Assembly: GCA_001766815.1 (NCBI GenBank)
Contig: LYOS01000008.1
Coordinates: 1 to 32,000, forward strand
Length of the DNA stretch: 32,000 nt
Source of the DNA: Candidatus Syntropharchaeum caldarium
GTDB lineage: Archaea; Halobacteriota; Syntropharchaeia; Syntropharchaeales; Syntropharchaeaceae
Direction: 5' to 3'
Under the pieces are notes generated by a model. It was not told the origin of the DNA and searched no databases. It worked only from the letters and a program-made list of their open reading frames with translations. Shown in pieces: positions 1 through 31,072 of the stretch. The position numbers and the translations under genes are program-made. Each line of letters starts with the position of its first letter. The stretch's first letter is position 1.

Positions 1-116
1 ATGTGGCCGCCTGGTGTCTCTTTCTCCTCGATCAACGTGACCGACGTCCCCCTGTCTGCTAAAGAGAGGGCAGCCATGATTCCAGCTATCCCACCACCGA
101 TTACAGCGACGGTCAT
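1..116 (-). CDS. N-terminal fragment of an HdrA-like FAD-dependent oxidoreductase; the gene continues beyond the window edge
   Basis: A minus-strand ATG at 116-114 opens MTVAVIGGGIAGIMAALSLADRGTSVTLIEEKETPGGH. This is a GxGxxG dinucleotide-binding N-terminus in the form I associate with heterodisulfide reductase subunit A. It starts 5 nt after the metF stop, so it is probably co-transcribed. Only 38 codons are visible. Confidence 0.5.
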   Translation of the reverse strand, partial: MTVAVIGGGIAGIMAALSLADRGTSVTLIEEKETPGGH

Positions 117-121
117 TTAGA

Positions 122-1057
122 TCACTTCTCAGCGCCTTCAATGATCGGTGCGATCACATCAGGGTAACCAACCGCCATTATGTGGCAGCCAGCACAGTTC
201 TTTTTCTTTCTTATCTCCTTCACAAAATTGACGAAGTAGTCGATATTGAATTCATCGATCTTTTTCTTGCGTTCAGCCTTGTCAGAGATCGCCTTGAATT
301 CCTTGAATGTCTTCAAAAACTCGGGTGGCACGGTAACACCTGATACGAACTTATCAAAGAACTCTGCCTGACCATAAGAACGGGGTGGGAAGATGCCGAT
401 AAATGTCGGTATACCGATGTGCTCAATTGATTCCAGATATGTAAGCGCGATATCCACATCAAATACAACCTGGGTCTGGATGAAATCAGCACCAACCTCC
501 GCCTTCCGCTCCATCTTCAGGACCTCAATCTCAAGCGGCTCCTGGTTCGGGTTTCCAGCAACTCCAATGTTGATCTCAGGCCTTGGTCCCTGCACCTCGT
601 TTCCAGAGAGGTCAGTTCCCTCATATACCATGTGATGGATCAGATCAACGAGCTGGGCCGAGTCAAGATCAAATACAGGCTTTGCGTCCGGGGTGTTTCC
701 CATGTGTGTGTGATCGCCTGTCAGGGCGAGGATATTCTTGAGACCAAAGGCAGCAGCGGCAAGGATATCTGATGCAAGTGCCAGTCTGTTCTTGTCAGCA
801 GTCCTTAGCTGATATACCATCTCAAGCCCCGAGTCACGCTGGATGATGAAGCTTGCAGCAAGGCTCGACATTGCGCTGAAGCTCTGGGGGTTATCGGTCA
901 CATTTGCGGCTGTGATCTTTCCGATCCCCTTCAGGGTCTTTGCCCATTCAACAACATCCCCTATCTCTGTGCTCAGGTTATGTGGCTCAAGCTCACCGGT
1001 ATATACAAATTCACCAGCCTTGATCTTCTTCATCAACTCTGAGAATGCCTCCCCCAT
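122..1057 (-). CDS. metF: Methylenetetrahydrofolate reductase family protein (MetF-type)
   Basis: 311-aa ORF with MTHFR-family blocks: NVTDNP, LRTADKNR, ILALTGDH, FIQTQVVFD. It lies 2 nt downstream of a MetV-type gene. Confidence 0.85.
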   Translation of the reverse strand: MGEAFSELMKKIKAGEFVYTGELEPHNLSTEIGDVVEWAKTLKGIGKITAANVTDNPQSFSAMSSLAASFIIQRDSGLEMVYQLRTADKNRLALASDILAAAAFGLKNILALTGDHTHMGNTPDAKPVFDLDSAQLVDLIHHMVYEGTDLSGNEVQGPRPEINIGVAGNPNQEPLEIEVLKMERKAEVGADFIQTQVVFDVDIALTYLESIEHIGIPTFIGIFPPRSYGQAEFFDKFVSGVTVPPEFLKTFKEFKAISDKAERKKKIDEFNIDYFVNFVKEIRKKKNCAGCHIMAVGYPDVIAPIIEGAEK

Positions 1058-1059
1058 CT

Positions 1060-1719
1060 CTATAACCTCCTCGGATTCATAGCAAGTGTCCGCTTCTTCG
1101 GTGGTCTATATTTCCTGAAAAGATCAAGTCGGTTAAGCTCTTTTGCTCGATGATAGATCAGATACCATGCACAGTCATTCTTTACCATCTCACCATTGAC
1201 CTCCATCGGAAGCTCGCACTTACCCTCAACACATCCTCCACAGGGTCCATTGAGAAGCCCTTTCGCGCATCGAGCCACCGGACAGATACCCCCCGTCTCT
1301 TCGAGAATACACTCACCACATGCAAGACACATCTCATACATCGGGCCCTGTCTGATCTCTTCAGAACCGATGAACATGGTATCCTGTGCCGGACGTGTCC
1401 AGATCTCAGGATAAACTTTGTTAAGTATCTGGACACCAACACCGCACGCAAGCGAGACCATACCATCGTAATCATTCAGTTGAACCCGGAGGTTTCCAAC
1501 CGATTCATCACAGCACTGTTTCACGATGGTTGTAAAACCAGTCTCAATCGGTTTGCCCTCCATCTTTGCCTTCATCTCAATAAGCTTTGCAAGTGTCTCC
1601 GCTTCTTTCAAGCCTCTTGGAGGCTGTGTGCAGCCATCACATCCCACAAAGAGGACTCTTTTGCAGTCTGCTATCGATGCATAGATTTCCTCTAAGGGTT
1701 TTTCCTTGGTTATTATCAT
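1060..1719 (-). CDS. metV: MTHFR C-terminal-domain / zinc-ribbon protein (MetV-type small subunit)
   Basis: Cys-rich hallmark CLACGECILEETGGICPVARCAKGLLNGPCGGCVEGKCE, plus VGCDGCTQPP. I prefer the ATG at 1719 (MIITKEKPLEE) over the ORF-track start at 1803, because the first 28 codons look non-coding. Confidence 0.8.
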   Translation of the reverse strand: MIITKEKPLEEIYASIADCKRVLFVGCDGCTQPPRGLKEAETLAKLIEMKAKMEGKPIETGFTTIVKQCCDESVGNLRVQLNDYDGMVSLACGVGVQILNKVYPEIWTRPAQDTMFIGSEEIRQGPMYEMCLACGECILEETGGICPVARCAKGLLNGPCGGCVEGKCELPMEVNGEMVKNDCAWYLIYHRAKELNRLDLFRKYRPPKKRTLAMNPRRL

Positions 1720-1868
1720 CCTGAATCGCCTCTCAATTATTGTATGATATGACCTTAAGCATATGCTGAATATATTGGTTGATATGATCCTCGATTTATA
1801 CACTATTTAAATTATTCGTTTTTATTTCAAGTGAAAAATATTTACAGAATAAATTGTTACAAATCGCA
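1720..1868. promoter_or_regulatory. AT-rich divergent intergenic/promoter region between metV and the mcrB-like gene
   Basis: 149 nt between divergent start codons. It holds several TATA-like boxes: TTTATACA ~1795, TATTTAAAT ~1804, AAAATATTTA ~1835. It also holds a perfect 10-bp palindrome AGCATATGCT (1758-1767) and the direct repeat TGATATGA (1745-1752 and 1780-1787). No transcription start can be assigned from sequence alone. Confidence 0.5.
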
Positions 1869-3254
1869 ATGTTTTTATATGCACAGGTTAAAACAGGCAA
1901 AGAGGTGACTTACTTGGTTAATAACGATGTTATAGACATTTACGCCGATGATGGGAAGGTTCTGGAAGAAAACATCCCACTGGAGGCTTTAAATCCATAC
2001 AAAAATCAGGCAATCCTCGATATACTTCAGACGATCAGGCGAACAGCACTGGTTGATATCTCGGCACTTGAAACAACGCTCAAGAAGGGGGAGGTTGGCG
2101 GTACGATGAATGTTGGAAGTGAGTGCCATATTCCTGGACGAGAGCTGGACCTACCACTTATGGATCGGATCGAAGAGATCAGAGAAAAAGTTAAAAAAAT
2201 GCTTGAGTTAACTCCAAACGATGATACACTGGTTGAAGTCGTTGATTCACTGATGGTAATCCAGATCCCGTCACGTTCATTTGCGATTGCAACCGACTCA
2301 TCCCAGGTTTATTTTAAACCTGCAATTGCGCTTATAGGTGCTATCTGTGACATCTTCGAGCTTGGTCCTTTTGACGGGCCTGAGATGGTGAAGGCTGCGG
2401 TTTTGGGGCGATATCCGCAGATGATCTCACCCAATGGAGTTATGTCCGCCATTTTATCATTCCCTACAACGATTGAAGGTGCGGGAAATGCGTATCGCAG
2501 CATAAAAGTGAACGACATTGTTGCGCTTGCCAATAAACGAACGTTTGATGCTGCGGCGCTGGGTTCAGTCTTTGAGCATGGTGCAGCCTTTGAGTCGGGC
2601 AACGCGATGGGAGCATACAGGCGGTACCACCTTCTTGGTATGGCATACCAGGGTTTCAACGCCGACAATATGGTCTGGGAGCTCCTGCGAGATCATGGGA
2701 AAGGAGGGCGAATCACCGATATTATCGACGATCTCGTTGAACGTGCCCTGAGGGATAGGGTTATTGAGGTTGAAGAGAAACTGCCATCGGGGTATACTCT
2801 CTATTCAACCCGCGATGCTGCACGCTGGAATGGTTATGCAGCAGCAGGACTGATGGCAGCAGCGATACACAATGCAGGTGTGATGCGATCTGGACAGGGC
2901 GCCCCATCAGCGATGCTCTTTTACAACGAACTGCTCACGTCCCAGACCGGGCTACCCGGGGTCGACTTCGGGAGGGCGCTTTCCACTTCAGTAGTATACA
3001 CATTCCTGACTCATAATACCTACGGTGGCGGTGAGCCAGGCATATTCTCTGCTGAACATCCTGCAACTCGCGGTTCTCGCGGTTTTATTATTCCCTGTGC
3101 AGCAGCTGCAATGTGTCTTGATGCTGGAACGATGATGTTCCCGGCAGAAGCAACTTCAGGAAAGATGTTCAAGCTCAGAGAGATCTTACCTGTTTTCAAA
3201 GACCCCGTAAAAAAAATTGCAGCAGCTGCAGCAGCAGTCTCAGGTGAGGTGTGA
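1869..3254 (+). CDS. mcrB: Methyl-coenzyme M reductase beta-subunit homolog (divergent; MCR/ACR family)
   Basis: Collinear with recalled canonical McrB:
- DIYADDGKVLEENIPLEALNPYKN (cf. [24 protein letters not shown])
- MVKAAVLGRYPQ
- YHLLGMAYQGFNADN
- WNGYAAAGLMAA
- TYGGGEPGIF
- GFIIPCAAAAMCLDAGT
- PAEATSG
The start is uncertain. The ATG at 1869 is given. TTG at 1914, preceded by GAGGTGA (1902-1908), would give an N-terminus of canonical length. The ORF track opens at TTG 1854. Confidence 0.9.
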   Translation: MFLYAQVKTGKEVTYLVNNDVIDIYADDGKVLEENIPLEALNPYKNQAILDILQTIRRTALVDISALETTLKKGEVGGTMNVGSECHIPGRELDLPLMDRIEEIREKVKKMLELTPNDDTLVEVVDSLMVIQIPSRSFAIATDSSQVYFKPAIALIGAICDIFELGPFDGPEMVKAAVLGRYPQMISPNGVMSAILSFPTTIEGAGNAYRSIKVNDIVALANKRTFDAAALGSVFEHGAAFESGNAMGAYRRYHLLGMAYQGFNADNMVWELLRDHGKGGRITDIIDDLVERALRDRVIEVEEKLPSGYTLYSTRDAARWNGYAAAGLMAAAIHNAGVMRSGQGAPSAMLFYNELLTSQTGLPGVDFGRALSTSVVYTFLTHNTYGGGEPGIFSAEHPATRGSRGFIIPCAAAAMCLDAGTMMFPAEATSGKMFKLREILPVFKDPVKKIAAAAAAVSGEV

Positions 3255-3257
3255 GAA

Positions 3258-4925
3258 ATGGATGAGAAGATACTTGACGACTTCAAGCGAATATTCAAGG
3301 AGGAAGATCCAACCAAAAGGGAGACCCAGTTCTATAACTTTGGCGGGAGAACGCAATCAAAGGCCAAGCGTGAATTCATCGAATCAGCAAAGCGCATCGC
3401 AGAAACGCGTGGTATTCCGGGTTATCAGGGAGATCGGGAGGATTTTGGTGTCCCGCTTGGATCGAGATATCTTGAGCCATATCATATCGCAGGAACAGAT
3501 ACGTTCTGTGAAATGGACGACATCCATCAGATCAACAATGCAGCAATCCAGCAGATGGGGGATGACATCAAGCGAACTGCGATAAACGGGCTTGACCTGC
3601 CGCACAGGGTGCTCCAGCAGAAGGTTGGTATAGCGGTCACACCTGAGACGATAAACCGCTACCTTGAAGCTGTAAATCACTCAATTGTTGGCGGGGCACT
3701 CGCACAGGAACATATGGCAGAGATAAATCCCAACATGAGCAAGGATGGTTATGCAAAGATTATAACAGGCGATGACGAGCTCGTGGACAGAATCGATAGT
3801 CGATTTGTGATTGATATCAACAAGGAATACCCCAAAGAAATGGCAGAGAAGCTTAAAAGCAAGATCGGTAATCATCTCTATCAGGTCGCAAGGATACCCA
3901 CAATTGGGGTCAGGATCGCTGATGGTTCAGTTGTCCATCGCTGGAATGGAAATCAGAGCGCACTCGCATTTGTTTCAACATACAACCTCGGAGGCGGCTC
4001 GATACTCGCTGAATTTTCACTCACCGTGAAGCACATGGCATACATGCTCATCGGAACGCCCACATGGCCCCGTAGAGGTCCAAGAGGTGCGAACGAACCG
4101 ATTGGAATACCAAATGGATATATCGGTGACTTCTGTCAGGCAGATGCGGTGAACGACGACCCTGTTCATTACTGTATGGAGGCCATGGCAGTAAGCGGCG
4201 CTATCTATGGTCTGTACTGGTTTAGTAGCTATGTGGTTGGTGGGATCGGCGGTCCAAATACCTTTGCGTCACCCTTCACAAGCGAGCTCCTGACTGATTT
4301 TACATACCATATCTCAGACTGGGTGAAGGAGAAGTACGGCGGATATGTTGCCTGTAAACCATCTTTTGATGTGATAAGGGAGGTTACAGAAGAGGTGAAC
4401 TTCTATGCAATGGAGCAGTACGATAAGTACCCCCTTCTCCTTGAGCACCACTGGGGAGGCGTCATCAGAATCCTGAACCTCAATGCTGCATCTGCTATTG
4501 GGGTCGGGTTTGCAACAGGCAACTCAACAGCAGCCAGTATCGCGAACTATTACTCAGGCGGATTCCTGCAGAAGGAGGCATGGGGAAGGAATAATGTTGG
4601 AGTGGGTGATGCTGCAGAACAGCTCAATATCCCAAACAGCGTTTCTATACGACCAGAAGAGGGCGTAATTCCGGAACTGAAGAGTCCAAACATCCCCGAA
4701 GATTCATATTCAGCATCGCACTTTGTCTCGCTTCCTGCAGCATCTTTCTCGGCACATCGTGCGAGGGGGGATGCATGGTGCTTGAGTCCACTTGTGAAGG
4801 TTGCGTTTGCAGACCCCTCACTCACCTTCGACTTCAAGCATGTGCGTGAAGAGATCGCAAAGGGTGCACGTCGTGAGTTTGTACCATCTGGAATGCGCGA
4901 TCCAATTACACCGGAGGGGCGATAA
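3258..4925 (+). CDS. mcrA: Methyl-coenzyme M reductase alpha-subunit homolog, highly divergent (candidate alkyl-CoM reductase alpha)
   Basis: 555 aa. The N-terminal half tracks canonical McrA: FYNFGG, RGIPGY, NNAAIQQMGDDIKRT, VTPETINRYLEAVNH, AQEHM, FVIDINKEYP, ARIPTI. C-terminal landmarks are retained: PRGANEP, SSYVVGGIG, DFTYH, FATGN, SIRPEEG, ARGDAWCLSPLVKVAFAD. Hallmark motifs are replaced (see findings). The ATG lies 3 nt after the mcrB stop, with GGTGAGGTG upstream. Confidence 0.9.
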   Translation: MDEKILDDFKRIFKEEDPTKRETQFYNFGGRTQSKAKREFIESAKRIAETRGIPGYQGDREDFGVPLGSRYLEPYHIAGTDTFCEMDDIHQINNAAIQQMGDDIKRTAINGLDLPHRVLQQKVGIAVTPETINRYLEAVNHSIVGGALAQEHMAEINPNMSKDGYAKIITGDDELVDRIDSRFVIDINKEYPKEMAEKLKSKIGNHLYQVARIPTIGVRIADGSVVHRWNGNQSALAFVSTYNLGGGSILAEFSLTVKHMAYMLIGTPTWPRRGPRGANEPIGIPNGYIGDFCQADAVNDDPVHYCMEAMAVSGAIYGLYWFSSYVVGGIGGPNTFASPFTSELLTDFTYHISDWVKEKYGGYVACKPSFDVIREVTEEVNFYAMEQYDKYPLLLEHHWGGVIRILNLNAASAIGVGFATGNSTAASIANYYSGGFLQKEAWGRNNVGVGDAAEQLNIPNSVSIRPEEGVIPELKSPNIPEDSYSASHFVSLPAASFSAHRARGDAWCLSPLVKVAFADPSLTFDFKHVREEIAKGARREFVPSGMRDPITPEGR

Positions 4926-4927
4926 GA

Positions 4928-5704
4928 ATGGATGAAAAGAAAGCAAACAGGTATCCGGGTAATGATCCTGTTGGAGCACGGAGAAGGGAACTGCTCAGTC
5001 CAGAATCGAAGTTCAAACGTCTCAGAGAGATCTCTGATAATGATTTAGTCCTGCTGCTTGGGCACAGAAACCCCGGTGAGGAGTACGGCTCAGCACACCC
5101 GCCACTTGATGAACTGGAACAAAAAGATGACCCGATAGCAGATCTCATTGAACCGTCGGCTGGAGCGAGAGCAGGTGACCGGATCAAGTACCTTCAGATG
5201 ACAGATTCTGTCTACTACTCACCTTCAGCACCCACCTTCAGGGGCAGGATGTATCACGTCAGATACCCGGGGATCGATACAATTGTCTATTCTGGAAGAC
5301 AGCTCATGGAAACCCGGGAGCGAGATCTTGAGCTCTATACACGGGAGTTGATGGAGACCGAATTATTTGACGCTGCAAGGACATCGATGCGCGCAATAAC
5401 CGTGCACGGATCATCATTGCGACTTGATGAGAACGGGCTGATGTTTGATGCAAGGCGAAGAACAAGGTATGATCCCGAGACAGGTGAAGTGAGTTATGTG
5501 AAGAACCAGATGGCAATACCGATGGATCGAGCTGTAAATCTTGGAAAGCCGATGGACGAGGAAGAACTGATCTCAATCTCGGTAAGGTATGGTGGGGCAA
5601 GTATACCTTACAGAGATGCAAAAGAGCTCTGGAAGCTCACAGGCAAGATTCTTGAGCAGCATGTTGTGGGTGGCTTCAATCCCACAAAAATTGAGAGACG
5701 ATAG
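4928..5704 (+). CDS. mcrG: Methyl-coenzyme M reductase gamma-subunit homolog
   Basis: 258 aa with canonical McrG blocks: KLREISDNDLVLLLGHRNPGEEYGSAHPPL, GARAGDRIKYLQMTDS, SGRQLMETRERDLE, VHGSSLRLDENGLMFD. The ATG lies 2 nt after the alpha stop, with GGAGGGG upstream. Confidence 0.9.
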   Translation: MDEKKANRYPGNDPVGARRRELLSPESKFKRLREISDNDLVLLLGHRNPGEEYGSAHPPLDELEQKDDPIADLIEPSAGARAGDRIKYLQMTDSVYYSPSAPTFRGRMYHVRYPGIDTIVYSGRQLMETRERDLELYTRELMETELFDAARTSMRAITVHGSSLRLDENGLMFDARRRTRYDPETGEVSYVKNQMAIPMDRAVNLGKPMDEEELISISVRYGGASIPYRDAKELWKLTGKILEQHVVGGFNPTKIERR

Positions 5705-5717
5705 GTGAGAGGAATTT

Positions 5718-6035
5718 TTACTCCTCAACCTCTTCTTCATTTTTGCTTGAATATCTTAAGTACCAGTCTAAAAACTCTGTATAGATGACGACAGATAAGA
5801 ACCCCGCCCATAGGGCGAGGAGTATGTGAATATTGCATATCGAGACCACTCCATTCATCGGTGAAAAGAGCTCAAATGCAAAGAATTCAGCCATCTTTTC
5901 GGGTGTTATGATGGTACCAATAAGTGGTATAAGGATCATTAGCGCAGTACCAAGCCGTGAAGAGAGGTATATGATTACAAGCGCTATTATAGCCGTATAG
6001 ACGATGAAGAACAGTAACGAGAAGATCAGATTCAT
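5718..6035 (-). CDS. Small integral membrane protein (about 3 TM helices), paralog of the N-terminal domain of the upstream gene
   Basis: The 105-aa ORF aligns along its length with residues 1-100 of ORF 6036-7112: LIPLIGTIITPEKMAEFFAFELF / LVPLIGVMIAPEEMAGFLSYELF, and NIHILLALWAGFLSVVIYTEFLDWY / NIHILLAFWAAFLSIVIYTEFLGWY. Its start codon directly abuts the upstream gene's stop. I recognise no family. Confidence 0.6.
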   Translation of the reverse strand: MNLIFSLLFFIVYTAIIALVIIYLSSRLGTALMILIPLIGTIITPEKMAEFFAFELFSPMNGVVSICNIHILLALWAGFLSVVIYTEFLDWYLRYSSKNEEEVEE

Positions 6036-7112
6036 TCAGACAACACCCCACGTCTTATTTCTTTCGATGTAATGTGAGCAAAGATCCAGAATATCGTTTT
6101 TTAGATCCATCGCCCTATCTCTCCCAATGAGCAGACTTGCAGAGCGACCTGCACACTCGGCAAGTTTCTCCAGATCGGTGAGGGCGAGTGAGTCAGGTGT
6201 TATGTCAAGATGGTCTTTGAGCTGGCTTTCAAGGAAGTTTTCCCCTTCGTTCATGTATTTTGCAATGATTGCAAGCAGATCCTGGTATATATCAATCATC
6301 TGGCAGAGTTGATCCAGTGCTGGATCACCCGGTGTGGATGCAGTGGACGGTAGTTCATTTTTCCATTCATGCCACTCCTCTACAATCTTTTTCATCTCCT
6401 CGAGGCCATCCAGGTTGGTACCGCCGGGTATGCTAAGCGCAAAATCCGATTGCTCTTCGGTTTCAATCTCTTTCTCCTCGTTCTTCCTTATTGTAAAGCT
6501 TGTTTTAGCCACCGGTCCTGAACTGAAGCCTGGTGGCGATGTGAAGAGACACAGCTCGCCTCTTCCAGCAACTTCGGGTCTTATAACCGCGATCTCATGC
6601 TCGATATCGCACCTGATCCATTCATCACCGATGGTATCAACAGGCACATCATCTATCTTCGCTTCAATACGAACAAGTACCGCCTTGAACAGTCCAGATT
6701 TGATGATGATCCTGCAGATGAGTGGTTCTCCAACTTCAAGCGAATCATTGTCCACTTCAATACGCGCCTCAAAATTCTCATCTTCAGGAAACTCTATATC
6801 ACTCGATCCAGATCCAGAGGCGGAAATGTGCGCCATATACCAGCCCAAAAACTCGGTATAGATGACAATAGATAAAAATGCAGCCCAGAACGCAAGAAGT
6901 ATGTGAATGTTACGCATCGAGATCGCGCCATCCATGATTGCAAAAAGTTCATATGAGAGGAATCCCGCCATCTCTTCGGGTGCGATCATAACTCCGATGA
7001 GTGGTACCAGCAACATGAAAAGAATGCCTGCAAATGATGAGACATAGATGATGATAAACCCAATAAAAAGAAGATACAGGATCAGGAGAAATAGCGAGAG
7101 TAGAAGATCCAT
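6036..7112 (-). CDS. Membrane protein: N-terminal 3-TM domain plus an acidic soluble C-terminal region, function unknown
   Basis: 358-aa ORF. It has a hydrophobic N-terminus (paralogous to 5718-6035), an SGSGSS linker, a beta-rich segment, then a helical acidic segment. Its start lies 1 nt from the stop of the upstream surface-protein gene. Confidence 0.6.
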   Translation of the reverse strand: MDLLLSLFLLILYLLFIGFIIIYVSSFAGILFMLLVPLIGVMIAPEEMAGFLSYELFAIMDGAISMRNIHILLAFWAAFLSIVIYTEFLGWYMAHISASGSGSSDIEFPEDENFEARIEVDNDSLEVGEPLICRIIIKSGLFKAVLVRIEAKIDDVPVDTIGDEWIRCDIEHEIAVIRPEVAGRGELCLFTSPPGFSSGPVAKTSFTIRKNEEKEIETEEQSDFALSIPGGTNLDGLEEMKKIVEEWHEWKNELPSTASTPGDPALDQLCQMIDIYQDLLAIIAKYMNEGENFLESQLKDHLDITPDSLALTDLEKLAECAGRSASLLIGRDRAMDLKNDILDLCSHYIERNKTWGVV

Positions 7113-8353: not shown

Positions 8354-9124
8354 TTAGCGAATACGAATGAACTTACAATCCGCCCCATAAATCACTTTTT
8401 CATAAATTTCAAGAATTTGAGGCACTTCAAGTTCATCGGGGCGCATATCAAGTAATTTTTCGAGACCTGTGCCAACAGGATCAATTCCCGCCATCCTGAG
8501 CGTCTTTTTTACATGTTTTCTGCGGTTTGAGAATAGCCATCTTACAAAATCTAAAAAGAGGGCTTTATCCTTGATATTATACTTGTTGTGGGGTGTGAGT
8601 CGGATGATGGCTGAATGAACAGCTGGCACAGGATAGAATGCACTCTTTGGAACCTTTTCAAGCACATCAATATCTGAAAACGCCTGAACAGAGACTGCAA
8701 TCCTCCCATACCTCTTTTCTCCTGGTTTTGCTCTCATTCGCTGAATAAACTCTGACTGATAGATCAAAATTCCAAGTTTAAACTCTGATCTGAGGAGTTT
8801 TAGCGTAATATTGGATGAAATTGAATAGGGCAGATTTGATATGACCTTATCAAATTCAGGAAGCTCGATCTTAAGCGCATTTGCGTTTATAATGAATGCA
8901 CCTGGACATCTCGCCTTAATCATTCTTGATAGCTCAGGATCAATCTCGATCGCGTACACCGTATCCGACCGTTCAATAAGGCGAGCTGTAAGATTTCCAG
9001 TTCCCGCACCGATCTCAAGTACCCGATCCTTTCTCGCAACTTCACCGTACTCAACGATCCGATCCAGAATCGCATCATCAAGAAGGGTATGCTGTCCCAG
9101 CTTAGATCTCCTCGTCCTGGACAT
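8354..9124 (-). CDS. rsmA: 16S rRNA (adenine-N6,N6)-dimethyltransferase RsmA/KsgA (archaeal Dim1 type)
   Basis: LGQHTLLD, the SAM-binding VLEIGAGTGNLT, and the NLPYSISS motif. I prefer the start at MSRTRRSKLGQH (9124) over the ORF-track start at 9187. Confidence 0.85.
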   Translation of the reverse strand: MSRTRRSKLGQHTLLDDAILDRIVEYGEVARKDRVLEIGAGTGNLTARLIERSDTVYAIEIDPELSRMIKARCPGAFIINANALKIELPEFDKVISNLPYSISSNITLKLLRSEFKLGILIYQSEFIQRMRAKPGEKRYGRIAVSVQAFSDIDVLEKVPKSAFYPVPAVHSAIIRLTPHNKYNIKDKALFLDFVRWLFSNRRKHVKKTLRMAGIDPVGTGLEKLLDMRPDELEVPQILEIYEKVIYGADCKFIRIR

Positions 9125-10598
9125 AGCTCCTTCTAAGCCTGATCGCAAGTTCTGCTTTTGCAAGTTCAACTCCAAGATAACCTGCATGATCGATCATCGA
9201 GATTTTGCCTGTTTTAGCAAGATATGCGATAATTTCCTTCGCCTTCAGACCCCGTATAATCTCAACTCTCCCATCTGGCATGTTGTGCTCAAGATATATC
9301 ATTCCTTTCTGCACCGCTATCCTGAAGTAGCCGAGTGGATCTGATTTCCACTCCTGCTTTTCTGTAACTGTTACCACATCATCCAGCTCTTCGATCAGGA
9401 CACCCTCGCGTTTACGCTTCTCTTTTGCAACAAAGAGGTCGATTCCAAGATCTTTTGGTGGAGACTGTCTTTTTGATGCGAGCTGCATCATCATCGATGC
9501 TTTGACAAGTTCATTTACGCTTCCCATGGTTTTTCTACTTGCCTCTGGTGCAAAGAGTATTCCAATGCCGAGTTCCATTCCTATTCCTGCAAGAACAGCA
9601 TTTATCCCGACAGAATCTGCATCAATAAGTTCTGTTACATTCCCAACCCCAAAAAATAGCGGTGTTGATTTATCGATCTCTCTGAAACGGTAGTAGTCAT
9701 GGATCGAGCGCGCGATGCCCTCTCCAACCGGTGAAAGGATCGGATCTGCAACTATCTTATCAATTCCAAGCGATCGTGCTATATCAATTACCTCAAAAAG
9801 TTCATCAACGCCACTTCTTGATATTACAACCGCAGATATCTCTGCTTTTGCGATATCTTCTCCGACTGCTTCGATATTCTCTCTGTCAAGGCTCAGGATA
9901 AGATCAGCGCCCGAACTGATTCCTGCCTCAATGAGCGCTGGCTCCATTGTATCAAGACTTACAGGAAGCTCTGTCACGGATTTTGCAACCGCAAGGATGC
10001 GTTTTACATCGTCCACTTCTGCATCAAGTGTGACACCAAGATCGATGATATCGGCGCCCTCTGATTCAAAGTATCTGATCTCCTGCTCAAGTTCCTCATC
10101 TCGGAGTAACGTTGCATCCACGATCTCGGCCATCACCTTCATCGAGGTATTTCCTCCGATCTTAACACCCCTTATCATGAATTCAGGTACACCCGTAGCT
10201 TCAAGCTCGAGAAGCTCTTTCTTTATTGTTTCAAAGTCTCTTTCAGATGACCTGCGCGCTGGAACAGAGTCTGAAAGTTCAATTTCATCAATATTCGCGA
10301 GCAGATCTGGTAAATCATGGGCGTATCTTGTACCAAGTCTTATTTTAACTCCAAACTCTCTCTCCAGCTCACTAAAATTGGATGTGACGTTTCCAGGGAG
10401 CAGTATCAAATCGTAATCTGAGAGATCAATCTTTTTAAGCAGTCTGTAAAGTATTTGGGGTGTCAGGAGCGCTGCAACATCCACATCTGCAACCGCTACC
10501 TCAGCCAGATCTCCAACATAGTTCCTGACAATCTCGGTTGCTCGTCTTCCTGTTATGACAAGGGTTTTCATGACATCATGTCGTTGCTGATCGCTCAT
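9102..10598 (-). CDS. Dihydropteroate synthase-like protein (archaeal pterin-binding family linked to tetrahydromethanopterin biosynthesis)
   Basis: 498 aa. The central region has pterin-binding TIM-barrel-like blocks: GADIIDLG, DTMEPALIEAG, ADLILS, DPILSP, GVGNVTEL. There are extra N- and C-terminal domains, as in the long archaeal DHPS-like proteins. GGAAGG lies upstream of the ATG at 10598. Confidence 0.6.
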   Translation of the reverse strand: MSDQQRHDVMKTLVITGRRATEIVRNYVGDLAEVAVADVDVAALLTPQILYRLLKKIDLSDYDLILLPGNVTSNFSELEREFGVKIRLGTRYAHDLPDLLANIDEIELSDSVPARRSSERDFETIKKELLELEATGVPEFMIRGVKIGGNTSMKVMAEIVDATLLRDEELEQEIRYFESEGADIIDLGVTLDAEVDDVKRILAVAKSVTELPVSLDTMEPALIEAGISSGADLILSLDRENIEAVGEDIAKAEISAVVISRSGVDELFEVIDIARSLGIDKIVADPILSPVGEGIARSIHDYYRFREIDKSTPLFFGVGNVTELIDADSVGINAVLAGIGMELGIGILFAPEASRKTMGSVNELVKASMMMQLASKRQSPPKDLGIDLFVAKEKRKREGVLIEELDDVVTVTEKQEWKSDPLGYFRIAVQKGMIYLEHNMPDGRVEIIRGLKAKEIIAYLAKTGKISMIDHAGYLGVELAKAELAIRLRRSYVQDEEI

Positions 10599-11037
10599 CG
10601 ACCTTCCATCTTGACAGGAAATAATCCATCAATCTTTTGTTTTTATACAACTCCCTTATGTACTCATCTATCGCATGCTGAAAGTCATCGAAATACCGGG
10701 AGACATAAAAATTTATAAAACCATCAGATCTGAACTCAATCCCGCAATCAGTGGGTGCAGGCTCTCTCATCCATACTTTTGCCAGTCCTTTGATGAAATA
10801 TTCGTGTACCAGCCCACATCTCACCCGTTCATATACATCATCGCCATGTTCATCCAGCAACCTGATATATTCTTCACCCAGCTTTTTCAAGCCATGATTG
10901 TAGTTCTTTTTTGCCTGTCCTTCCCTGATCTTGCACCGATACAGCCCACCAAGAAACTCTGTGTAAGCAGAGAGCGCCAGCGCAACCAGATAATTCGCCT
11001 CTCCGTCAATCGCAGCATTAATATCCTTGACCATCAA
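10576..11037 (-). CDS. Hypothetical protein
   Basis: 153-aa ORF of protein-like composition in a gap not covered by other genes. I recognise no family. A TATA-like TTTTTATACC lies about 50 nt upstream on the minus strand. Confidence 0.45.
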   Translation of the reverse strand: MMVKDINAAIDGEANYLVALALSAYTEFLGGLYRCKIREGQAKKNYNHGLKKLGEEYIRLLDEHGDDVYERVRCGLVHEYFIKGLAKVWMREPAPTDCGIEFRSDGFINFYVSRYFDDFQHAIDEYIRELYKNKRLMDYFLSRWKVDERSATT

Positions 11038-11108
11038 ATTCTTAAATTTGCGGATCTTCTCTTCTAACTCTGAGATTCTACCACCCGTGCATCAGGGTAT
11101 AAAAACAA

Positions 11109-12305
11109 TTAAAACGTCGTAATCTTCCCTTCTGATACAAGTTCTGTGATCTCTGTAACTCGCTCAAGCCAATCATCGATGATCCTGGTTATCGCAGGCG
11201 CAATATCATCAACACTCACCCCATTCTTCGGGATGATCTGGGCGTTTGCAACCAGTGGATTATCGATCGGCTGACCAATCTGTGAGAGAATTCTGACTGA
11301 TATCTCCTGAAGGTCTGCGATCTTCTCTATAGCCTCATTTGCGATCTGGGTTGTGAGCAGGTTGTAGATCTTTCCAACGTGGTTCACCGGGTTCTTACCT
11401 GATGTTGCCTCGAGACTCATCGATCTGTTTGGTGTGATGAGTCCATTCGCACGATTTCCTCTCCCAACTGAACCATCATCCCCCATCTCTGCTGAGAGCC
11501 CTGTCACGGTGAGGTATATTGATCCATTCTCAATGTCATCCCCAACGTTTACAAATACCTCAATTTCACGATCTGTGTATGATGACGCAACATCCTTTGC
11601 AAAGGTGGCAATTTCATCCCGTATCGCGACGTAATGATCGATATCATCGACATATCTCGAGACAAAAGCATCTGCGATCGTGACAGTAATCTTATCCTTC
11701 ACTCTCAGTCCCATCACCTTTATATCCTCGCCTACCGCCTTCTCGCGCTTACTGAGATTATTCACCATCTCTCTTTCGATGTTGTAGACGATATTCTCAA
11801 CCTCAGAGAAAGGTGCATGCCCCACACCAAAGGAGGTGTCATTTGCAAGCGGTACCCTGTCTCTGGAGTCAAATATCTCAACAAGATCGTATGAACCTTC
11901 CCCGATCTTACAGTCGATCACCACATCCGTCTCAGGGTTGAGGTTATGGATACTCTCCTGAAGATATGATTTTGCAGCCCTCAATGCGATGACATCGACA
12001 GGCACCTCTTCGTCACCAGCCCATTTTGTCGCTCTTCCATTTAGAAGAATATAGCTAGGGGTGATGATCTCACCACCACCAAAGGCTGGTCTGGACCTGC
12101 CTGCAACAATCGCCACCTCATCGGTGTTGTGGTGGAGTATCATGCCATATCGCTTCTTGTACTCATTGCACAGCGCACGGCTTACAGCTTCTGCAATCCC
12201 ATCGCAGATCGAATCTGGGTGTCCAATACCTTTTCTCTCAACAAGCTCGATCTCCTGAAGTTCGATCGGAAGCTGATGTATCGCCTCAACCTGGATATTT
12301 CGCAT
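11109..12305 (-). CDS. mat: Archaeal-type S-adenosylmethionine synthetase
   Basis: 398 aa with the archaeal MAT signature [17 protein letters not shown] and ILHHNTDEV. Length and layout are typical of the MJ1208 family. Confidence 0.9.
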
Positions 12306-12327
12306 ATCATTTCTCCCATTCTATAAT

Positions 12328-12918
12328 TCAACTTCGATATTCGTCCTTAAGTGGCTTTGGAGGCAGTGGAAATATGCTTCTGAAAGTTTCTGGGTTTTTG
12401 ACCATCTCCTGGAGTTGATTTTTCGTCTCATCCACAAGCACATCCACATACATCATCTCCACAAAGTTTTGACAGGCATCTGCAAGCTCGATAAGACTCT
12501 TGACGTCCTGTTCCATCTGCTCGAATGAACAGGCGAATGGACACGAATTTCTGATTTTATTGATCACATCGAGAAATTGGCGCATCTCCTCCTTCCGATC
12601 AATCGAGTCAAACTGCTGCTGAAAGTGTGATTTAAGTTCTTCAGTATCAAGTTCATTTGCGATTGATATCGGTTTTATACCATCGAACGTTGCAAATATC
12701 AATGGTATGTTGAGGAGGTACTCAATATACGCAGTGTCGATGCTATCTCTTGCACCCATCGCGCACGCAATCCGCTGGTCCTCGACATCCTCATCATCCA
12801 TCTCCGTCATCTTCCTGCACATATTACAGTACTGCCAGAATCGGCTGATAGACTGGTAAAACGATATGACACCTTCGAGTGGTAGTTCTGCCTTAAGTTC
12901 CATATAAACAAAGATCAT
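12328..12918 (-). CDS. Hypothetical protein (acidic, helical)
   Basis: 196-aa ORF between the SAM synthetase and SAH hydrolase genes on the same strand. I recognise no family. The start could be the second ATG (MELKAEL, 12903). Confidence 0.45.
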   Translation of the reverse strand: MIFVYMELKAELPLEGVISFYQSISRFWQYCNMCRKMTEMDDEDVEDQRIACAMGARDSIDTAYIEYLLNIPLIFATFDGIKPISIANELDTEELKSHFQQQFDSIDRKEEMRQFLDVINKIRNSCPFACSFEQMEQDVKSLIELADACQNFVEMMYVDVLVDETKNQLQEMVKNPETFRSIFPLPPKPLKDEYRS

Positions 12919-12960
12919 TCTTTACCTTTAAAGGCTTTTGGATTGAGTGTGCGCTACCCT

Positions 12961-14211
12961 TCACGTTCCAAGTTCCCATGATGAGAGGTACCGCTCCTGT
13001 TCTTCTGTCAGCGTCTCAATCTCAATCCCCATCGATTTGAGCTTGAGGGCCGCAACACGCTCATCGATCTCCCTCGGTACGCCAGTGACTTTTCTTTCAC
13101 GCAGATCGGAGTTTATGATGTATTCAACCGCAAGTGCCTGATTCGCAAAACTCATATCCATCACACCGGGTGGATGACCGTACGCTGCCGCCAGATTGAT
13201 AAGTCTCCCTTCACTCAGGAGATATATCCGCCTGCCATCAGCAAGCGTGTACTCATCAACCTCTTCTTTGACGCGTTTCTTGCTGATTGCAAGCTTTTCG
13301 AGGTCATCAATTGCAATTTCGACATTGAAGTGCCCCGAATTTGCAAGAACTGCCTGGTCCTGCATCAACTCGAAATGCTCACCCCGTATGACCGATGTAT
13401 CACCTGTCACCGTGATGAAGATCTCACCCGTCTTTGCAGCATCATGCATCGGCATCACCTGGTAACCATCCATCACAGCTTCAAGGGCCTTTCTCGGGTT
13501 GACCTCAACCACGATCACATTTGCACCCAGTCCTCTGGCACGCATCGCAACACCCCTGCCGCACCAGCCATATCCGACAACCACCACTTTTCTGCCTGCA
13601 AACAGGAGATTTGTAGCATTCATAATCCCATGCAGTGTCGACTGACCCGTTCCATAACGATTATCAAACATCATCTTTGTTTCAGCATCATTCACCGCGA
13701 TTACCGGAAAAGCGAGTTTGCCAGACTTTTCAAGCGCTCTCAGACGGATCACCCCGGTGGTGGTCTCCTCGCACGCACCCTTTATCGAGTTCATGAGATC
13801 GGGGTAGTGCTCGTGTATATGTGCTATTGTATCTGCCCCATCATCAAGTACAACATCAGGCATGATATCAAGTGCCGCCTCAAGACACGCATAGTACTCG
13901 TCATCGTTTTCCCTGAATGCATAAACCCAGATACCACTTCTGGCGAGCGCTGCAGCAACATCATCCTGTGTGCTCAATGGATTCGATCCGGCAAGTGCGA
14001 TCTCTGCCCCCCCTGCTTTCAGTGTCTTGATGAGGTTTGCTGTCTCAACCGTGACATGCAGACACGCTGTGATCTTCACGCCATCGAGTGGCTTTGTCTC
14101 TTCAAACCGCGATTTTATGAGTTCAAGCACCGGCATGTGCCGCCTTGCCCATTCAATCCGCTCATCCCCAGTATCCGCAAGCTGCAGGTCTTTGACGATA
14201 GATTCTTTCAT
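12961..14211 (-). CDS. ahcY: Adenosylhomocysteinase (S-adenosyl- or S-inosyl-L-homocysteine hydrolase)
   Basis: [36 protein letters not shown], the NAD fold [12 protein letters not shown], and GHFNVEI. The ORF-track start at 14280 is a TTG. I prefer the ATG at 14211 (MKESIVKDL, with GAGGGA upstream), which gives a typical 416 aa. The ATG at 14238 is an alternative. Confidence 0.88.
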
Positions 14212-14314
14212 CGATATTCCCTCATCGTAATTCTCCATCTGCGTTAATAACCTTAACTCCTTCAAATTTCGATCATTCAAGCAATTTTAAATACCTGCCA
14301 GTTAAATCACGTCT

Positions 14315-17801: not shown

Positions 17802-18242
17802 TCAATCTAATGTTTTTGATGTTGTCGTGAGTTTGACGTGTTTAACGCCTTTTAACGACATGATCTCTTCTGTTATCTGTTTGATCTCGCGTATGTTTCC
17901 GCGTGCAAGCAGTATCTCGATGCAGTTGTCATGATCAAGATGTACGTGGAGTGAGGTTCCAAGCAATCCAATTGAGTTGTGCTGGATATCAAGGAGTGTA
18001 TCAGTCAGCCCACGCTGATTGTGGTTGTAGGTGATTGTTATAACCGCAACTTTTTCACCCTCTTCTTCCCCCATCCATTCGTATTCTACGATATAATTTC
18101 TGATCGCATCTCGTATTCCTTCGGATCTCGACGAGTATCCCCTCTTCGTTATTATTTCATCAAAACGATTGAGGAGATTGTCTGGAAGCGAAACACCAAT
18201 ACGCATAAGTTCCTGGTCTATATTAAAACCCCCTTCCTTCAA
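17802..18242 (-). CDS. nikR: Nickel-responsive transcriptional regulator NikR
   Basis: An N-terminal ribbon-helix-helix (RIGVSLPDNLLNRFDEIITKRGYSSRSEGIRDAIRNYI) is followed by a C-terminal metal-binding domain with His-rich blocks (ITYNHN, LHVHLDHDNCIE). The start could also be ATG 18206. Confidence 0.85.
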   Translation of the reverse strand: MKEGGFNIDQELMRIGVSLPDNLLNRFDEIITKRGYSSRSEGIRDAIRNYIVEYEWMGEEEGEKVAVITITYNHNQRGLTDTLLDIQHNSIGLLGTSLHVHLDHDNCIEILLARGNIREIKQITEEIMSLKGVKHVKLTTTSKTLD

Positions 18243-18289: not shown

Positions 18290-18808
18290 TCATTCTATTA
18301 CTTTTGCCTTGCCTGAATGTATTACTGAGACGTCACCAACGTGGCATACTGTACAATCCTTGCCCCTTGGTTCGTGGATTTTCACCAGGTTTCCTTCAAC
18401 AGACGTTGTTGCATCTGGGTATCCATGGCAGTTCTCGCAGACCGTATAAGTTCCAACTGGCTGGGGTATGGTTGGTGGTGTACCATGACAGGTCTTACAC
18501 GGGACTATTGATTCCGGATGAAGCCCGTGAACATCCCCTACGGCACCACCCGGATTTTTATGGCACTGTGTACACTTATCTCCACCGTGCTGGTGTGCAT
18601 CCAGGTCTGCTGCGTTCTTGTGGCACATCAGGCAGCTCATTTCAGGCGTCGTTACAGGTGCCTGTGTCACAATCGGTGTTGGTGTTGGCGTGGGTTGTGT
18701 TGCTATCGGCGTGGGAGTAGCTTCCTCTCCTCCTTCCAGACAGCCTGCAACCCCCACAACAACAAGGACCAACGCTAATGTCACAAACAGATATAATTTC
18801 TTAACCAT
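18290..18808 (-). CDS. Pentaheme c-type cytochrome, probable lipoprotein with Thr/Pro-rich stalk
   Basis: Five CxxCH motifs fall within about 115 residues: CLMCH, CTQCH, CKTCH, CENCH, CTVCH. Six additional His are available as distal ligands. The N-terminus is a signal peptide ending in the lipobox-like VAGC, followed by TPTPIATQPTPTPTPIVTQAPVTTP. AGGTGA precedes the ATG. Confidence 0.85.
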   Translation of the reverse strand: MVKKLYLFVTLALVLVVVGVAGCLEGGEEATPTPIATQPTPTPTPIVTQAPVTTPEMSCLMCHKNAADLDAHQHGGDKCTQCHKNPGGAVGDVHGLHPESIVPCKTCHGTPPTIPQPVGTYTVCENCHGYPDATTSVEGNLVKIHEPRGKDCTVCHVGDVSVIHSGKAKVIE

Positions 18809-21500: not shown

Positions 21501-21527
21501 CTATCGTTAATTCTATTATATATGAAT

Positions 21528-21599
21528 GCCGGGGTGACCGAGTGGCATAGGTGCACGGCTGCAGACCGTGATACCTGGGTTCGAATCCCAGCCCCGGCC
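21528..21599 (+). tRNA. tRNA-Cys (anticodon GCA)
   Basis: GCCGGGGTGACCGAGTGGCATAGGTGCACGGCTGCAGACCGTGATACCTGGGTTCGAATCCCAGCCCCGGC(C) folds by hand:
- acceptor stem GCCGGGG/CCCCGGC
- anticodon stem CACGG/CCGTG
- anticodon loop CTGCAGA
- T arm CTGGG-TTCGAAT-CCCAG. Confidence 0.9.
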
Positions 21600-21602
21600 T
21601 TT

Positions 21603-23015
21603 ATGCAGATATACAACACGATGACACAGACTAAAGAGGAATTCAGTCCGATCCATGAAAATCGGGTGAATCTCTTTGTATGTGGTCCAACCGTCTATGA
21701 TCATGCACACATCGGTCATGCACGAACATACATCGCCTTTGACGTTGTTGCAAGGTATTTAAGATTCAAGGGTTTTAGTGTATTCTATCTTCAAAATATC
21801 ACAGATCTGGATGATAAAATACTAAATAGAGCAGAAGAACTTGGAATAGATCCTTTAGAACTTGCAAGAAGGTTTGAAAAGGAGTATCATAAGGATATGG
21901 AGGCGCTTGGGGTAAGGAGTGTGAACTTTCATGCAAGGGCAACAGAACACATCGATGCGATAATAGATCAGATCGGGGTACTGATCGATAAGGGCTTTGC
22001 ATACGTGACCGATAACGGTGTTTACTTCGATGAGTCGAAGTTTGAAGACTTCGGAAAGTTATCACATCAGCGATTGGATGATCTCACCCATCACAGGATC
22101 GAGCCAGACCCTTTGAAACGAAACCCCGGTGACTTTGCACTCTGGAAAAAGCGAGAAGACCCACCTGCATGGGATTCACCATGGGGTAAGGGAAGACCAG
22201 GCTGGCATATCGAGGATACGGCGATCACGTCAGAATATTTTGGAGCGCAGTATGACATACATGGCGGTGCAAAGGATCTGATATTTCCACACCACGAAGC
22301 AGAGATCGCCCAGATGGAATCAGCCTCTGGTAAGAAACCGATGGTCAATTACTGGATGCACACAGGATTTTTGAATGTTAAAGAAGAGAAGATGTCGAAG
22401 TCGCTTGGAAACTTTATAACGATCAGGGAAATGCTCGAACGTTGCAGCCCCGCGGTATTCAGGTTATTTATACTCTCAACACACTACAGAAGTCCTATAG
22501 ATTATAGTGAAGAAGCTCTGGAACAGGCTGCAAGCAGTTTTGAGCGTATCCGCGGGGCGGTTGAGACAGTGCGTCTGCTTATGAGAGAAGTAGAGCAGGG
22601 ATCAACTCACGAGGATTCGGATTTTCGTGCAAAGGTTCTTGATGCCAGAAATAACTTTTTTAGGGCGATGGATGATGATTTCAACACCCCACTTGCGCTC
22701 TCAGTTGTCTTCGATCTTATACGGGATCTGAATCGATATACAATGGAGAATACACTCTCTATCCAGACGCTCGACGTACTGAACCGTTTCTTCACTGAAC
22801 TTGAAACGATATTCGGGTTTGAGTTTGGGGTAAGCAGGGGGGACGAGGAAATGGTTGATAAACTTCTAAATATCGTGATGTGCATAAGAGATGAACACAG
22901 AGCAAAGGGTGAATGGGAAAAATCTGACTGGATACGGGATGAGCTTAAAAATATCGGTGTTATTGTGGAGGACTCTGCCAATAAAAGTAGGTACAGGGTC
23001 ATAAGGAGAAATTAA
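21603..23015 (+). CDS. cysS: Cysteinyl-tRNA synthetase (class I)
   Basis: MQIYNTMTQTKEEFSPI...VCGPTVYDHAHIGHARTY carries the HIGH motif, and KMSKS is present (EKMSKSLGN). The ORF-track start at 21522 reads through the tRNA. The canonical N-terminus begins at ATG 21603, with ATG 21621 as an alternative. Confidence 0.9.
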   Translation: MQIYNTMTQTKEEFSPIHENRVNLFVCGPTVYDHAHIGHARTYIAFDVVARYLRFKGFSVFYLQNITDLDDKILNRAEELGIDPLELARRFEKEYHKDMEALGVRSVNFHARATEHIDAIIDQIGVLIDKGFAYVTDNGVYFDESKFEDFGKLSHQRLDDLTHHRIEPDPLKRNPGDFALWKKREDPPAWDSPWGKGRPGWHIEDTAITSEYFGAQYDIHGGAKDLIFPHHEAEIAQMESASGKKPMVNYWMHTGFLNVKEEKMSKSLGNFITIREMLERCSPAVFRLFILSTHYRSPIDYSEEALEQAASSFERIRGAVETVRLLMREVEQGSTHEDSDFRAKVLDARNNFFRAMDDDFNTPLALSVVFDLIRDLNRYTMENTLSIQTLDVLNRFFTELETIFGFEFGVSRGDEEMVDKLLNIVMCIRDEHRAKGEWEKSDWIRDELKNIGVIVEDSANKSRYRVIRRN

Positions 23016-31070: not shown

Positions 31071-31072
31071 AT

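Follow-up and report, generated by a model that had tools for sequence, protein, structure and literature searches.

The metV-metF-hdrA*-mvhD operon beside acrBAG in Candidatus Syntropharchaeum caldarium: a reduced HdrA and a presumed stand-in for Mer

Syntrophoarchaeum comprises thermophilic archaea that oxidise butane and propane via alkyl-coenzyme M (alkyl-CoM). Like ANME-1, these organisms are without mer and code for metF (Zehnle et al. 2023, PMC10322722), and MetF as a substitute for Mer is an existing hypothesis (PMC10322722, PMC9012536). The genus has four Acr sets (PMC10322722). Both Syntrophoarchaeum genomes also hold MetFV-HdrA-MvhD clusters (Chadwick et al. 2022, PLoS Biol, PMC9012536). 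The precedent is the MetFV-HdrABC-MvhD methylene-tetrahydrofolate (methylene-H4F) reductase of Moorella thermoacetica (Mock et al. 2014, reviewed in PMC5861303); in the Moorella HdrA, two HdrA domains are fused (PMC9012536). We here deal with a locus of this kind at the start of contig LYOS01000008.1 of Candidatus (Ca.) Syntropharchaeum caldarium (assembly GCA_001766815.1), of which positions 1 to 32,000 were analysed; this stretch of 32,000 nucleotides (nt) is called the window. Its metV, metF and the beginning of an HdrA-like gene, hdrA*, lie on the minus strand and diverge from an mcr-like operon, acrBAG.

The explanation that we consider best, and quite probable, is that the locus is the Syntrophoarchaeum metV-metF-hdrA*-mvhD operon transcribed away from acrBAG, with MetF as the presumed stand-in for Mer. 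Its mechanism is inferred from two sources, the Moorella precedent and the reports that the genus has no mer. A sequence-only reading of the same DNA had started from that background, no Mer and MetF instead, which agrees with the published statements (PMC10322722, PMC9012536). A MetFV-HdrA-MvhD cluster is already known for the genus and is ordinary there. New are only details: the reduced HdrA, a second metVF cluster and a recombination mosaic. A comment on the adjacency of metVF and acr was not found in the open literature.

Compared with the described systems, the locus has familiar and unfamiliar traits. The cluster of Ca. S. butanivorans (LYOR01000007) shows the same order, acrG-A-B and divergently metV, metF, hdrA (870 residues) and mvhD, and the same pared-down tandem HdrA. 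Its acr DNA, however, is only 72-76% identical, i.e., it belongs to another species-level lineage, and its flanks past acrG and mvhD differ. With Moorella the window operon shares the joint encoding of MetF and MetV with MvhD and a two-module HdrA, as well as a small MetF that does not match the pyridine-nucleotide models. In contrast to Moorella, it is without hdrBC, and its HdrA* has neither the inserted ferredoxin domain nor the cysteines of the N-terminal cluster. The window system is, moreover, archaeal, its carrier is presumed to be tetrahydromethanopterin (H4MPT) and its direction to be oxidative, and it is described here from its genes. ANME-1 shares the broad uncultured-archaeal MetF family, the adjacent metV and, according to the literature, a host without mer; its loci, as far as surveyed, have no HdrA or MvhD beside metVF, in agreement with PMC9012536.

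The operon and its flavoprotein

The genes are tightly packed. The open reading frame (ORF) listing and the sequence give a gap of 2 nt (1058-1059) between metV and metF and one of 5 nt (117-121) between metF and hdrA*. The sequence-only reading had reported metV, metF and the start of a flavin adenine dinucleotide (FAD) protein with these gaps on the minus strand, divergent from mcrB; all this was re-read from the sequence and stands. MetF matches the MTHFR TIM-barrel family PF02219 with 109.6 bits (cut-off 24), and its residues 10-307 cover positions 4-284 of the 287 of the model, i.e., its full length. It falls outside the NAD(P)H-dependent equivalogs, reaching 61.8 bits for TIGR00676 (cut-off 293.7), 65.2 for TIGR00677 (cut-off 310) and 27.2 for PRK09432 (cut-off 382). 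These scores are consistent with the small MetF type of acetogens and archaea that requires a partner. The MetV domain PF12225 ('MTHFR C-terminal', DUF5981; 95.7 bits, cut-off 23) forms the C-terminal half of the window MetV, which is Cys-rich and encoded as a protein of its own just upstream of metF. The metV start, ATG 1719, is backed by the onset of conservation and by the Shine-Dalgarno-like sequence GAGAGG. The PDB yielded no solved relative of MetV, and Rfam no RNA family in window positions 1-6000.

The 38 residues of hdrA* that the window holds match 18 Pfam and 149 NCBIfam families of FAD/NAD proteins about equally. By itself, this fragment is not diagnostic of HdrA; the assignment was settled only by extension. 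An exact-protein look-up of MetF led to five short contigs, none longer than 4.8 kb, and the 4.8-kb one (L001, ENA ERZ27227318) is 99.4% identical to window positions 1-1257, with 100% from metF to the hdrA start (L001 1142-1257 being the hdrA part). Past window position 1 it continues with an HdrA-like gene for 853 residues and with mvhD for 135 (MvhD/FlpD, PF02662, 7.5e-45); a convergent ORF of 97 residues closes the operon. The 853-residue protein combines two FAD modules with a dicluster ferredoxin domain at its C-terminus. Its best NCBIfam match is HdrA2 (2e-152), yet with 509 bits against a cut-off of 1100, and with 404 against 1400 for HdrA, it stays below both; its best PDB matches are the HdrA chains 8rvv, 8rvu and 5odc (about 1e-79 to 1e-83). 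The truncated ORF is thus HdrA-like, as had been proposed, and the L001 extension, HdrA2 and the PDB chains rule out an unrelated FAD oxidoreductase. The same reading had pointed upstream for hdrBC and mvhD: on the near-identical L001, mvhD does follow hdrA* directly, whereas hdrBC was not found. Judged from these sequences, the operon has four genes, metV-metF-hdrA*-mvhD, of which the window holds the first two and a half. All four are co-localised on L001, in S. butanivorans (L006), in 'Ca. Syntrophoarchaeum sp. GoM_oil' (L096) and on L099.

For the anatomy of HdrA*, each half was aligned to five single-unit HdrAs that share 28 conserved cysteine columns. The protein was also aligned to the PDB HdrAs 8rvv and 5odc, and its cysteine columns were compared with those of canonical HdrAs and of tandem HdrAs of about 1000 residues. 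By these alignments, HdrA* joins two FAD modules of the HdrA type, both thioredoxin-reductase-like. The first of them, unit 1 (residues 1-330), is without N-terminal domain, inserted ferredoxin domain and C-terminal ferredoxin domain; it keeps the Cys197-like cysteine (C45, the first of a TLDCSxC segment) and the CX11CX3CC motif (C151/C163/C167/C168). Unit 2 has lost the Cys197-like residue. Sequence of its N-terminal domain is there (NRIIVAG.SHRKHEE, ANIREHAAWVH), yet with none of the five cluster cysteines; the inserted ferredoxin domain is again absent, and the C-terminal 2x[4Fe-4S] ferredoxin domain has all eight cysteines. Between residues 296 and 599 lies no cysteine at all. From the sequence, two FAD and roughly three [4Fe-4S] clusters are to be expected in HdrA*. 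Of the features of an HdrA, the FAD module, CX11CX3CC and the C-terminal 2x[4Fe-4S] domain were thus found, the N-terminal cluster and the inserted ferredoxin were not. The S. butanivorans protein still has the CX11CX3CC cysteines of unit 2, of which the window lineage has lost three of four (L001 HdrA* residues 599-629, S. butanivorans 609-624); this suggests an ongoing reduction.

Database searches and the cysteine table reveal three tiers of tandem HdrA. In proteins of about 1000 residues, found in L010, on L098 (L098b), in Halobacteriota and in Lokiarchaeota, unit 1 carries the inserted ferredoxin and unit 2 the N-domain cysteines; this agrees with the complementary pair of domains that Chadwick reports for the Moorella HdrA. 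Those of about 886-908 residues, from Syntropharchaeia and Desulfobacteria, are without inserted ferredoxin and largely keep the N-domain cysteines. In those of 853-872 residues both features are gone, and they occur only in Syntrophoarchaeum clusters of the window's kind, called type A here. On this count of cysteines, HdrA* is the most reduced member of the series. The large tandem HdrAs downstream of metVF (L010, L013, L014, L025) are about 32-35% identical to HdrA*; several are followed by an FrhB homologue, none lies beside mcr. Those with compared cysteine columns (L010, and in addition L098b, P0259 and P0303) retain, unlike HdrA*, the inserted 2x[4Fe-4S] domain of unit 1 and the N-domain cysteines of unit 2.

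How might such a complex work? MetF with its flavin would interconvert methyl- and methylene-H4MPT in the oxidative Wood-Ljungdahl branch and so replace Mer, presumably unable to use pyridine nucleotides directly. Electrons would pass from MetF to the iron-sulfur clusters of MetV and to the flavins of HdrA*, from which the [2Fe-2S] cluster of MvhD and the C-terminal ferredoxin domain would receive them. The partner that takes them over at the end would be encoded outside the operon; it may be a ferredoxin, an FrhB/F420 module, as in L010, L013 and L062, or HdrBC, as on L098. Since HdrA* lost two canonical HdrA cluster sites, a simple or modified electron relay appears at least as likely as the classical Hdr-type bifurcation.

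The acr operon, the spacer and the gene order

The alpha, beta and gamma subunits encoded on the plus strand all have full-length Pfam MCR domains, in the gene order B-A-G. Alpha (TIGR03256, 549 bits, cut-off 768) and beta (TIGR03257, 441, cut-off 516) stay below the canonical MCR equivalogs; gamma (TIGR03259, 288) exceeds its cut-off of 172. The window McrA is 80% identical to OFV65745.1 of S. butanivorans and 42-46% to named methanogen McrAs, and the closest relatives of the set are Syntrophoarchaeum and Alkanophagales sequences classed as Acr in the literature. The alpha and beta scores and these relatives rule out a canonical MCR. The beta gene most likely starts at TTG 1914 and not at ATG 1869: the ATG of the orthologues in S. 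butanivorans and L099 aligns with this TTG, the Shine-Dalgarno-like AGAGGTGA precedes it by 6 nt, and Pfam MCR_beta_N begins at residue 5 counted from it. The spacer to metV therefore measures 194 nt, in place of the 149 nt that followed from ATG 1869 in the sequence-only reading. Two genes for nickel-responsive regulators of the NikR type were seen, one in the window (ribbon-helix-helix and NikR_C domains, 17802-18242, minus strand) and one (L006 18117-18545) that precedes the second mcr set of S. butanivorans by about 0.5 kb; a connection with F430, a nickel cofactor, is conceivable.

Table 1. Features of the metVF/acr locus, with positions in the window.
Feature	Positions	Strand	Description
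hdrA* 5' end	1-116	-	38 codons, GxGxxG Rossmann start; full length of 853 residues given by L001
metF	122-1057	-	small MetF-type methylene-tetrahydropterin reductase, 311 residues; PF02219, 2.4e-31
metV	1060-1719	-	Cys-rich MetF partner subunit, 219 residues; PF12225, 1.4e-27
Divergent intergenic region metV/mcrB	1720-1913		194 nt, AT-rich
Conserved spacer core (TCGATTTATACACTATTTAAATTATTCGTTTTTATT...GAAAAATATTTACAGA)	1788-1850		TATA-like elements readable on both strands
acrB (mcrB-like, beta subunit)	1914-3254	+	446 residues from TTG 1914; PF02783 and PF02241
acrA (mcrA-like, alpha subunit)	3258-4925	+	555 residues; PF02745 and PF02249
acrG (mcrG-like, gamma subunit)	4928-5704	+	258 residues; PF02240, 5.7e-90

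The spacer is indeed AT-rich, as had been claimed: its G+C content is 29%, that of the window 46%. To S. butanivorans it is 61% identical as a whole, 79% in the core and 51-54% in the remainder, and 20-nt windows inside 1790-1829 reach 85-90%; for comparison, the flanking genes reach 48-63% at their third codon positions. The core holds CACTATTTAAATTATTCGTTTTTATT, with the palindrome ATTTAAAT, and GAAAAATATTT, which are TATA-like on both strands and precede metV by 70-130 nt and mcrB by 65-125 nt. In a four-way alignment the core recurs in L099 and in GoM_oil L096, the latter without an adjacent acr; it thus travels with metV. The mcrB-proximal half (1851-1913) is about 51% conserved, the Shine-Dalgarno sequence excepted. 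A scan for sigma-70 promoters, which tells little about an archaeon, returned 9 sites, with 7.3 expected. The divergent genes are separated by a short spacer that holds a conserved element, as would be expected of a shared bidirectional promoter. From its conservation the core is most likely the promoter or control region of metV. By that pattern it is primarily metV's own, and it may also serve the divergent gene. The metVF and acr operons probably have back-to-back promoters in the core, and a co-regulation of metVF-hdrA*-mvhD with acr is possible.

The spread of the gene order was followed with a MetF alignment scan over one genome per GTDB species, which gave at least 80 loci (S. butanivorans and the window genome not among them). 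Close relatives were added via members of the MetF cluster, and the fetched loci, about 100 with metVF, were searched by tblastn. In most of them metV lies immediately upstream of metF. HdrA and MvhD directly follow metVF in L010, L013 and L014 (Syntrophoarchaeia relatives), in L020, in the AMOR metagenome-assembled genome (MAG) L062 and in the Heimdallarchaeote L025. A few other loci have them in divergent or upstream position, and some bacteria, too, have metVF beside HdrA and MvhD. L010, L013, L014 and L025 share the order metV-metF-tandem hdrA-mvhD with the window lineage, and the MetFs of the first three are 79-80% identical to that of the window. An FrhB homologue follows mvhD in L010, L013 and L062, in the last one inside the cluster. 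The ANME-1 loci have metVF only. Among the loci surveyed, mcr stands beside metVF only in Syntrophoarchaeum: in the window, in S. butanivorans (L006-L009) and in the lineage L098-L101, i.e., in three of four lineages. In the fourth, GoM_oil, it is a DUF6125 gene that diverges from metV-metF-hdrA (862 residues)-mvhD. Because the genes past acrG differ in every lineage, acrBAG and metVF-hdrA-mvhD behave as a block.

The MetF of the window is 90% identical to OFV65748.1 of S. butanivorans (MetV 85%), and its 90% cluster includes GoM_oil and other Syntrophoarchaeum MAG entries. In a neighbour-joining tree it groups with type A of S. butanivorans, with Halobacteriota MAGs from tar biofilms, with Alkanophaga and with some Bathyarchaeia; the ANME-1 MetFs form a separate clade, 48-50% identical to it. 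The sequence-only reading had looked towards a MetF clade of ANME-1 and Syntrophoarchaeum. A broad uncultured-archaeal family does include both, but the window MetF is not sister to that of ANME-1. Type-A MetF is highly conserved, and its catalytic-region columns are invariant.

The genus has yet another MetF. This type-B paralogue, 53% identical to the window MetF, belongs to a cluster of metV, metF, hdrA, hdrA, hdrA, mvhD, hdrA and mvhD in S. butanivorans (L094, LYOR01000002, 9309-19395), which diverges from a gene for a GvpD/KaiC-like ATPase; the type-A relative L010 has the same neighbour. The type-B cluster is also found in Syntrophoarchaeum sp. 12019_3 (L020), where the first HdrA keeps all 28 cysteine columns.

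The identity between the window and L099/L101 is a mosaic. It amounts to 100% at the hdrA start, 97% in metF and 95-98% in the 3' half of metV; from about position 1441 it is about 80%, in the spacer 63% and in acrBAG 73-76%, with segments after 1441 ranging down to 52-77%. L001 (1-4095) and L099 are 97.8% identical as far as the end of mvhD, where the match stops. Against S. butanivorans the window is 72-84% identical throughout. The pattern suggests that a block of about 5.5 kb, metV(3')-metF-hdrA-mvhD, was recently exchanged between lineages whose acr operons differ at the species level; an assembly join appears less likely.

Weighing the readings

Several observations speak against a MetF complex of the proposed kind, or at least against its simple version. 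The true substitute for Mer could be the second metVF cluster of the genus, which has four canonical HdrAs and two MvhDs, so that either MetF may be the one that replaces Mer. In HdrA* the inserted ferredoxin domain is an alignment gap with 0 of 8 cysteine columns in both units, cluster cysteines of the N-terminal domain are found in neither, and the unit 2 CX11CX3CC motif retains one of four cysteines in the window lineage, as opposed to four of four in S. butanivorans. In the Mvh-Hdr structure, the two lost sites presumably correspond to the cluster that receives the electrons of MvhD and to the domain proposed to reduce ferredoxin; if so, the wiring must differ from that structural model. 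The operon contains no hdrBC on L001, L006, L096 and L099, four of the five lineages or contigs; hdrB and hdrC are present only on L098, where mvhD is absent. L001 stems from another sample than the window and differs by 7 single-nucleotide polymorphisms in the 1257-nt overlap, so that the downstream genes are deduced for the window organism, not read from it. Finally, every step of the mechanism, including the specificity for H4MPT over H4F, is inferred from sequence and analogy.

If the type-B cluster is the catabolic Mer replacement, the acr-linked metVF-hdrA*-mvhD would be auxiliary, e.g., a supplier of methyl groups for biosynthesis, or a degenerating duplicate. Type-B clusters in L094 and L020, the intact cysteine columns in the latter, the progressive loss of cluster ligands from the acr-linked HdrA*, and, at a distance of 7-12 kb in the window, a SAM (S-adenosylmethionine) synthetase, a pterin-binding protein and an SAH (S-adenosylhomocysteine) hydrolase all point in this direction. 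We nevertheless regard it as doubtful: the highly conserved type-A MetF is shared with Alkanophaga, where metF is reported to be expressed (PMC10322722), metVF-hdrA*-mvhD is compact with good ribosome-binding sites, genes for folate biosynthesis or C1 anabolism do not flank the operon, and other lineages show no synteny for the methyl-cycle genes. A genuine flavin-based electron-bifurcating enzyme of the Moorella type, with HdrBC encoded elsewhere and coupling methyl-H4MPT oxidation to heterodisulfide and ferredoxin, is unlikely, too. HdrA-type FAD modules and MvhD beside MetFV do match the Moorella set, hdrBC is often not co-localised with metFV-mvhD (PMC6085437), and on L098 a full-length tandem hdrA, hdrC and hdrB directly follow hdrA*. 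Yet bifurcation is undemonstrated even for the Moorella enzyme, the second acceptor of which is unidentified (PMC5861303), and L098 departs from its 97%-identical sibling L099 exactly past hdrA*, so that a strain variant or an assembly join is conceivable. The classical Hdr-type bifurcation is doubtful because HdrA* is without the inserted ferredoxin domain and the cluster cysteines of the N-terminal domain; for the same reason, the label of an electron-bifurcation-type partner, given in the sequence-only reading, goes beyond the evidence. At the other extreme, MetFV-HdrA*-MvhD might be a distinct, non-canonical methyl-H4MPT oxidoreductase, specific to Syntrophoarchaeum, with an electron output unlike that of any characterised Hdr complex, co-transcribed from a shared control region with one Acr and exchanged between Syntrophoarchaeum species as a cassette of about 5.5 kb. 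The exchange has its basis in the 97-99% identity of metV(3')-metF-hdrA-mvhD between lineages with 25% acr divergence; the reading as a whole we hold for clearly improbable. The Syntrophoarchaeum operon with MetF as the presumed Mer stand-in is thus the explanation that we retain.

What the neighbourhood of acr means is a separate matter. It may simply be the inherited gene order of one genus, with independent promoters, no co-regulation and a core that is promoter or operator of metV only, and to this we assign a chance just short of even. The core is equally conserved upstream of metV in GoM_oil, where the DUF6125 gene takes the place of acr, the mcrB-proximal spacer is poorly conserved outside the Shine-Dalgarno sequence, mcr adjoins metVF in none of the approximately 80 other archaeal and bacterial metVF loci listed, and in L010 and in cluster B of S. 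butanivorans the GvpD/KaiC-like ATPase gene sits in the position of acr. On the other side, the acrBAG-metVF block has been retained in three lineages with about 25% acr DNA divergence, while everything past acrG differs in each, and the core, TATA-like on both strands, is the sole conserved candidate for an acr promoter. It is very improbable that the assembly fused two co-occurring strains where the metVF side meets the acr side. The fall from 95-100% identity to L099/L101 in 1-1440 to about 80% from 1441, and then to 52-77%, would fit such a join, as would the contigs L005 and L093 of run SRR3669912, which match exactly and overlap by just 30 nt (1324-1353). The latter, 17.7 kb long and found by exact-protein look-up of McrA, begins inside metV. 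However, contig L002 from another run (SRR4163279) spans window positions 98-1730, and hence the whole transition, at 98.9%, and the acr/metVF arrangement recurs independently in S. butanivorans and L099/L101. As the cause of the gene order, a chimera is ruled out by L002 and by the same order in other genomes.

Neighbouring genes and the meaning of the locus

On L098 (13566-18035) the order is metV-metF-hdrA* (868 residues)-hdrA (1005, full tandem)-hdrC-hdrB, with no mvhD. Its hdrC exceeds the cut-off of TIGR03290 (173, cut-off 160), and its hdrB is just short of that of TIGR03288 (344, cut-off 345). The contig shares 97% identity with L099 as far as the end of hdrA* and differs from it thereafter.

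Right after acrG follow two genes for membrane proteins on the minus strand (5718-6035 and 6036-7112), with clearly similar N-terminal stretches of about 95 residues, i.e., tandem paralogues, and with no Pfam match; next comes a secreted or anchored protein of 400 residues with an immunoglobulin-like segment. A methyl-cycle neighbourhood (9102-14280, minus strand) codes for a pterin-binding, CdhD-like protein of 498 residues with DUF4346, for SAM synthetase and for SAH hydrolase; it lies 4-9 kb past acrG and is not syntenic in S. butanivorans. The gene of tRNA-Cys(GCA) (21528-21599, plus strand) coincides with the very start of the cysteinyl-tRNA synthetase ORF (21522-23015, plus strand). As the synthetase matches Pfam only from residue 41 onwards, cysS must in fact start further downstream, and the tRNA gene therefore directly adjoins that of its synthetase. 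Three genes, 18290-18808 (minus), 23017-23886 (plus) and 31067-31504 (plus), code for a small c3/c7-type cytochrome and for two archaeal proteins of the families DUF2099 and DUF2102. These two families are methanogenesis markers; the host does not make methane.

For oxidisers without Mer, such as Syntrophoarchaeum and ANME-1, the methyl-/methylene-H4MPT step and the fate of its electrons are a bioenergetic question. The reduced HdrA, the second, more canonical cluster and the acr linkage confined to one genus advise caution against taking gene order as proof of a bifurcating, co-regulated module. The locus is, at the same time, among the few that physically link MetFV to an Hdr-type flavoprotein in a Mer-less oxidiser, and it is a good target for expression studies and biochemistry.

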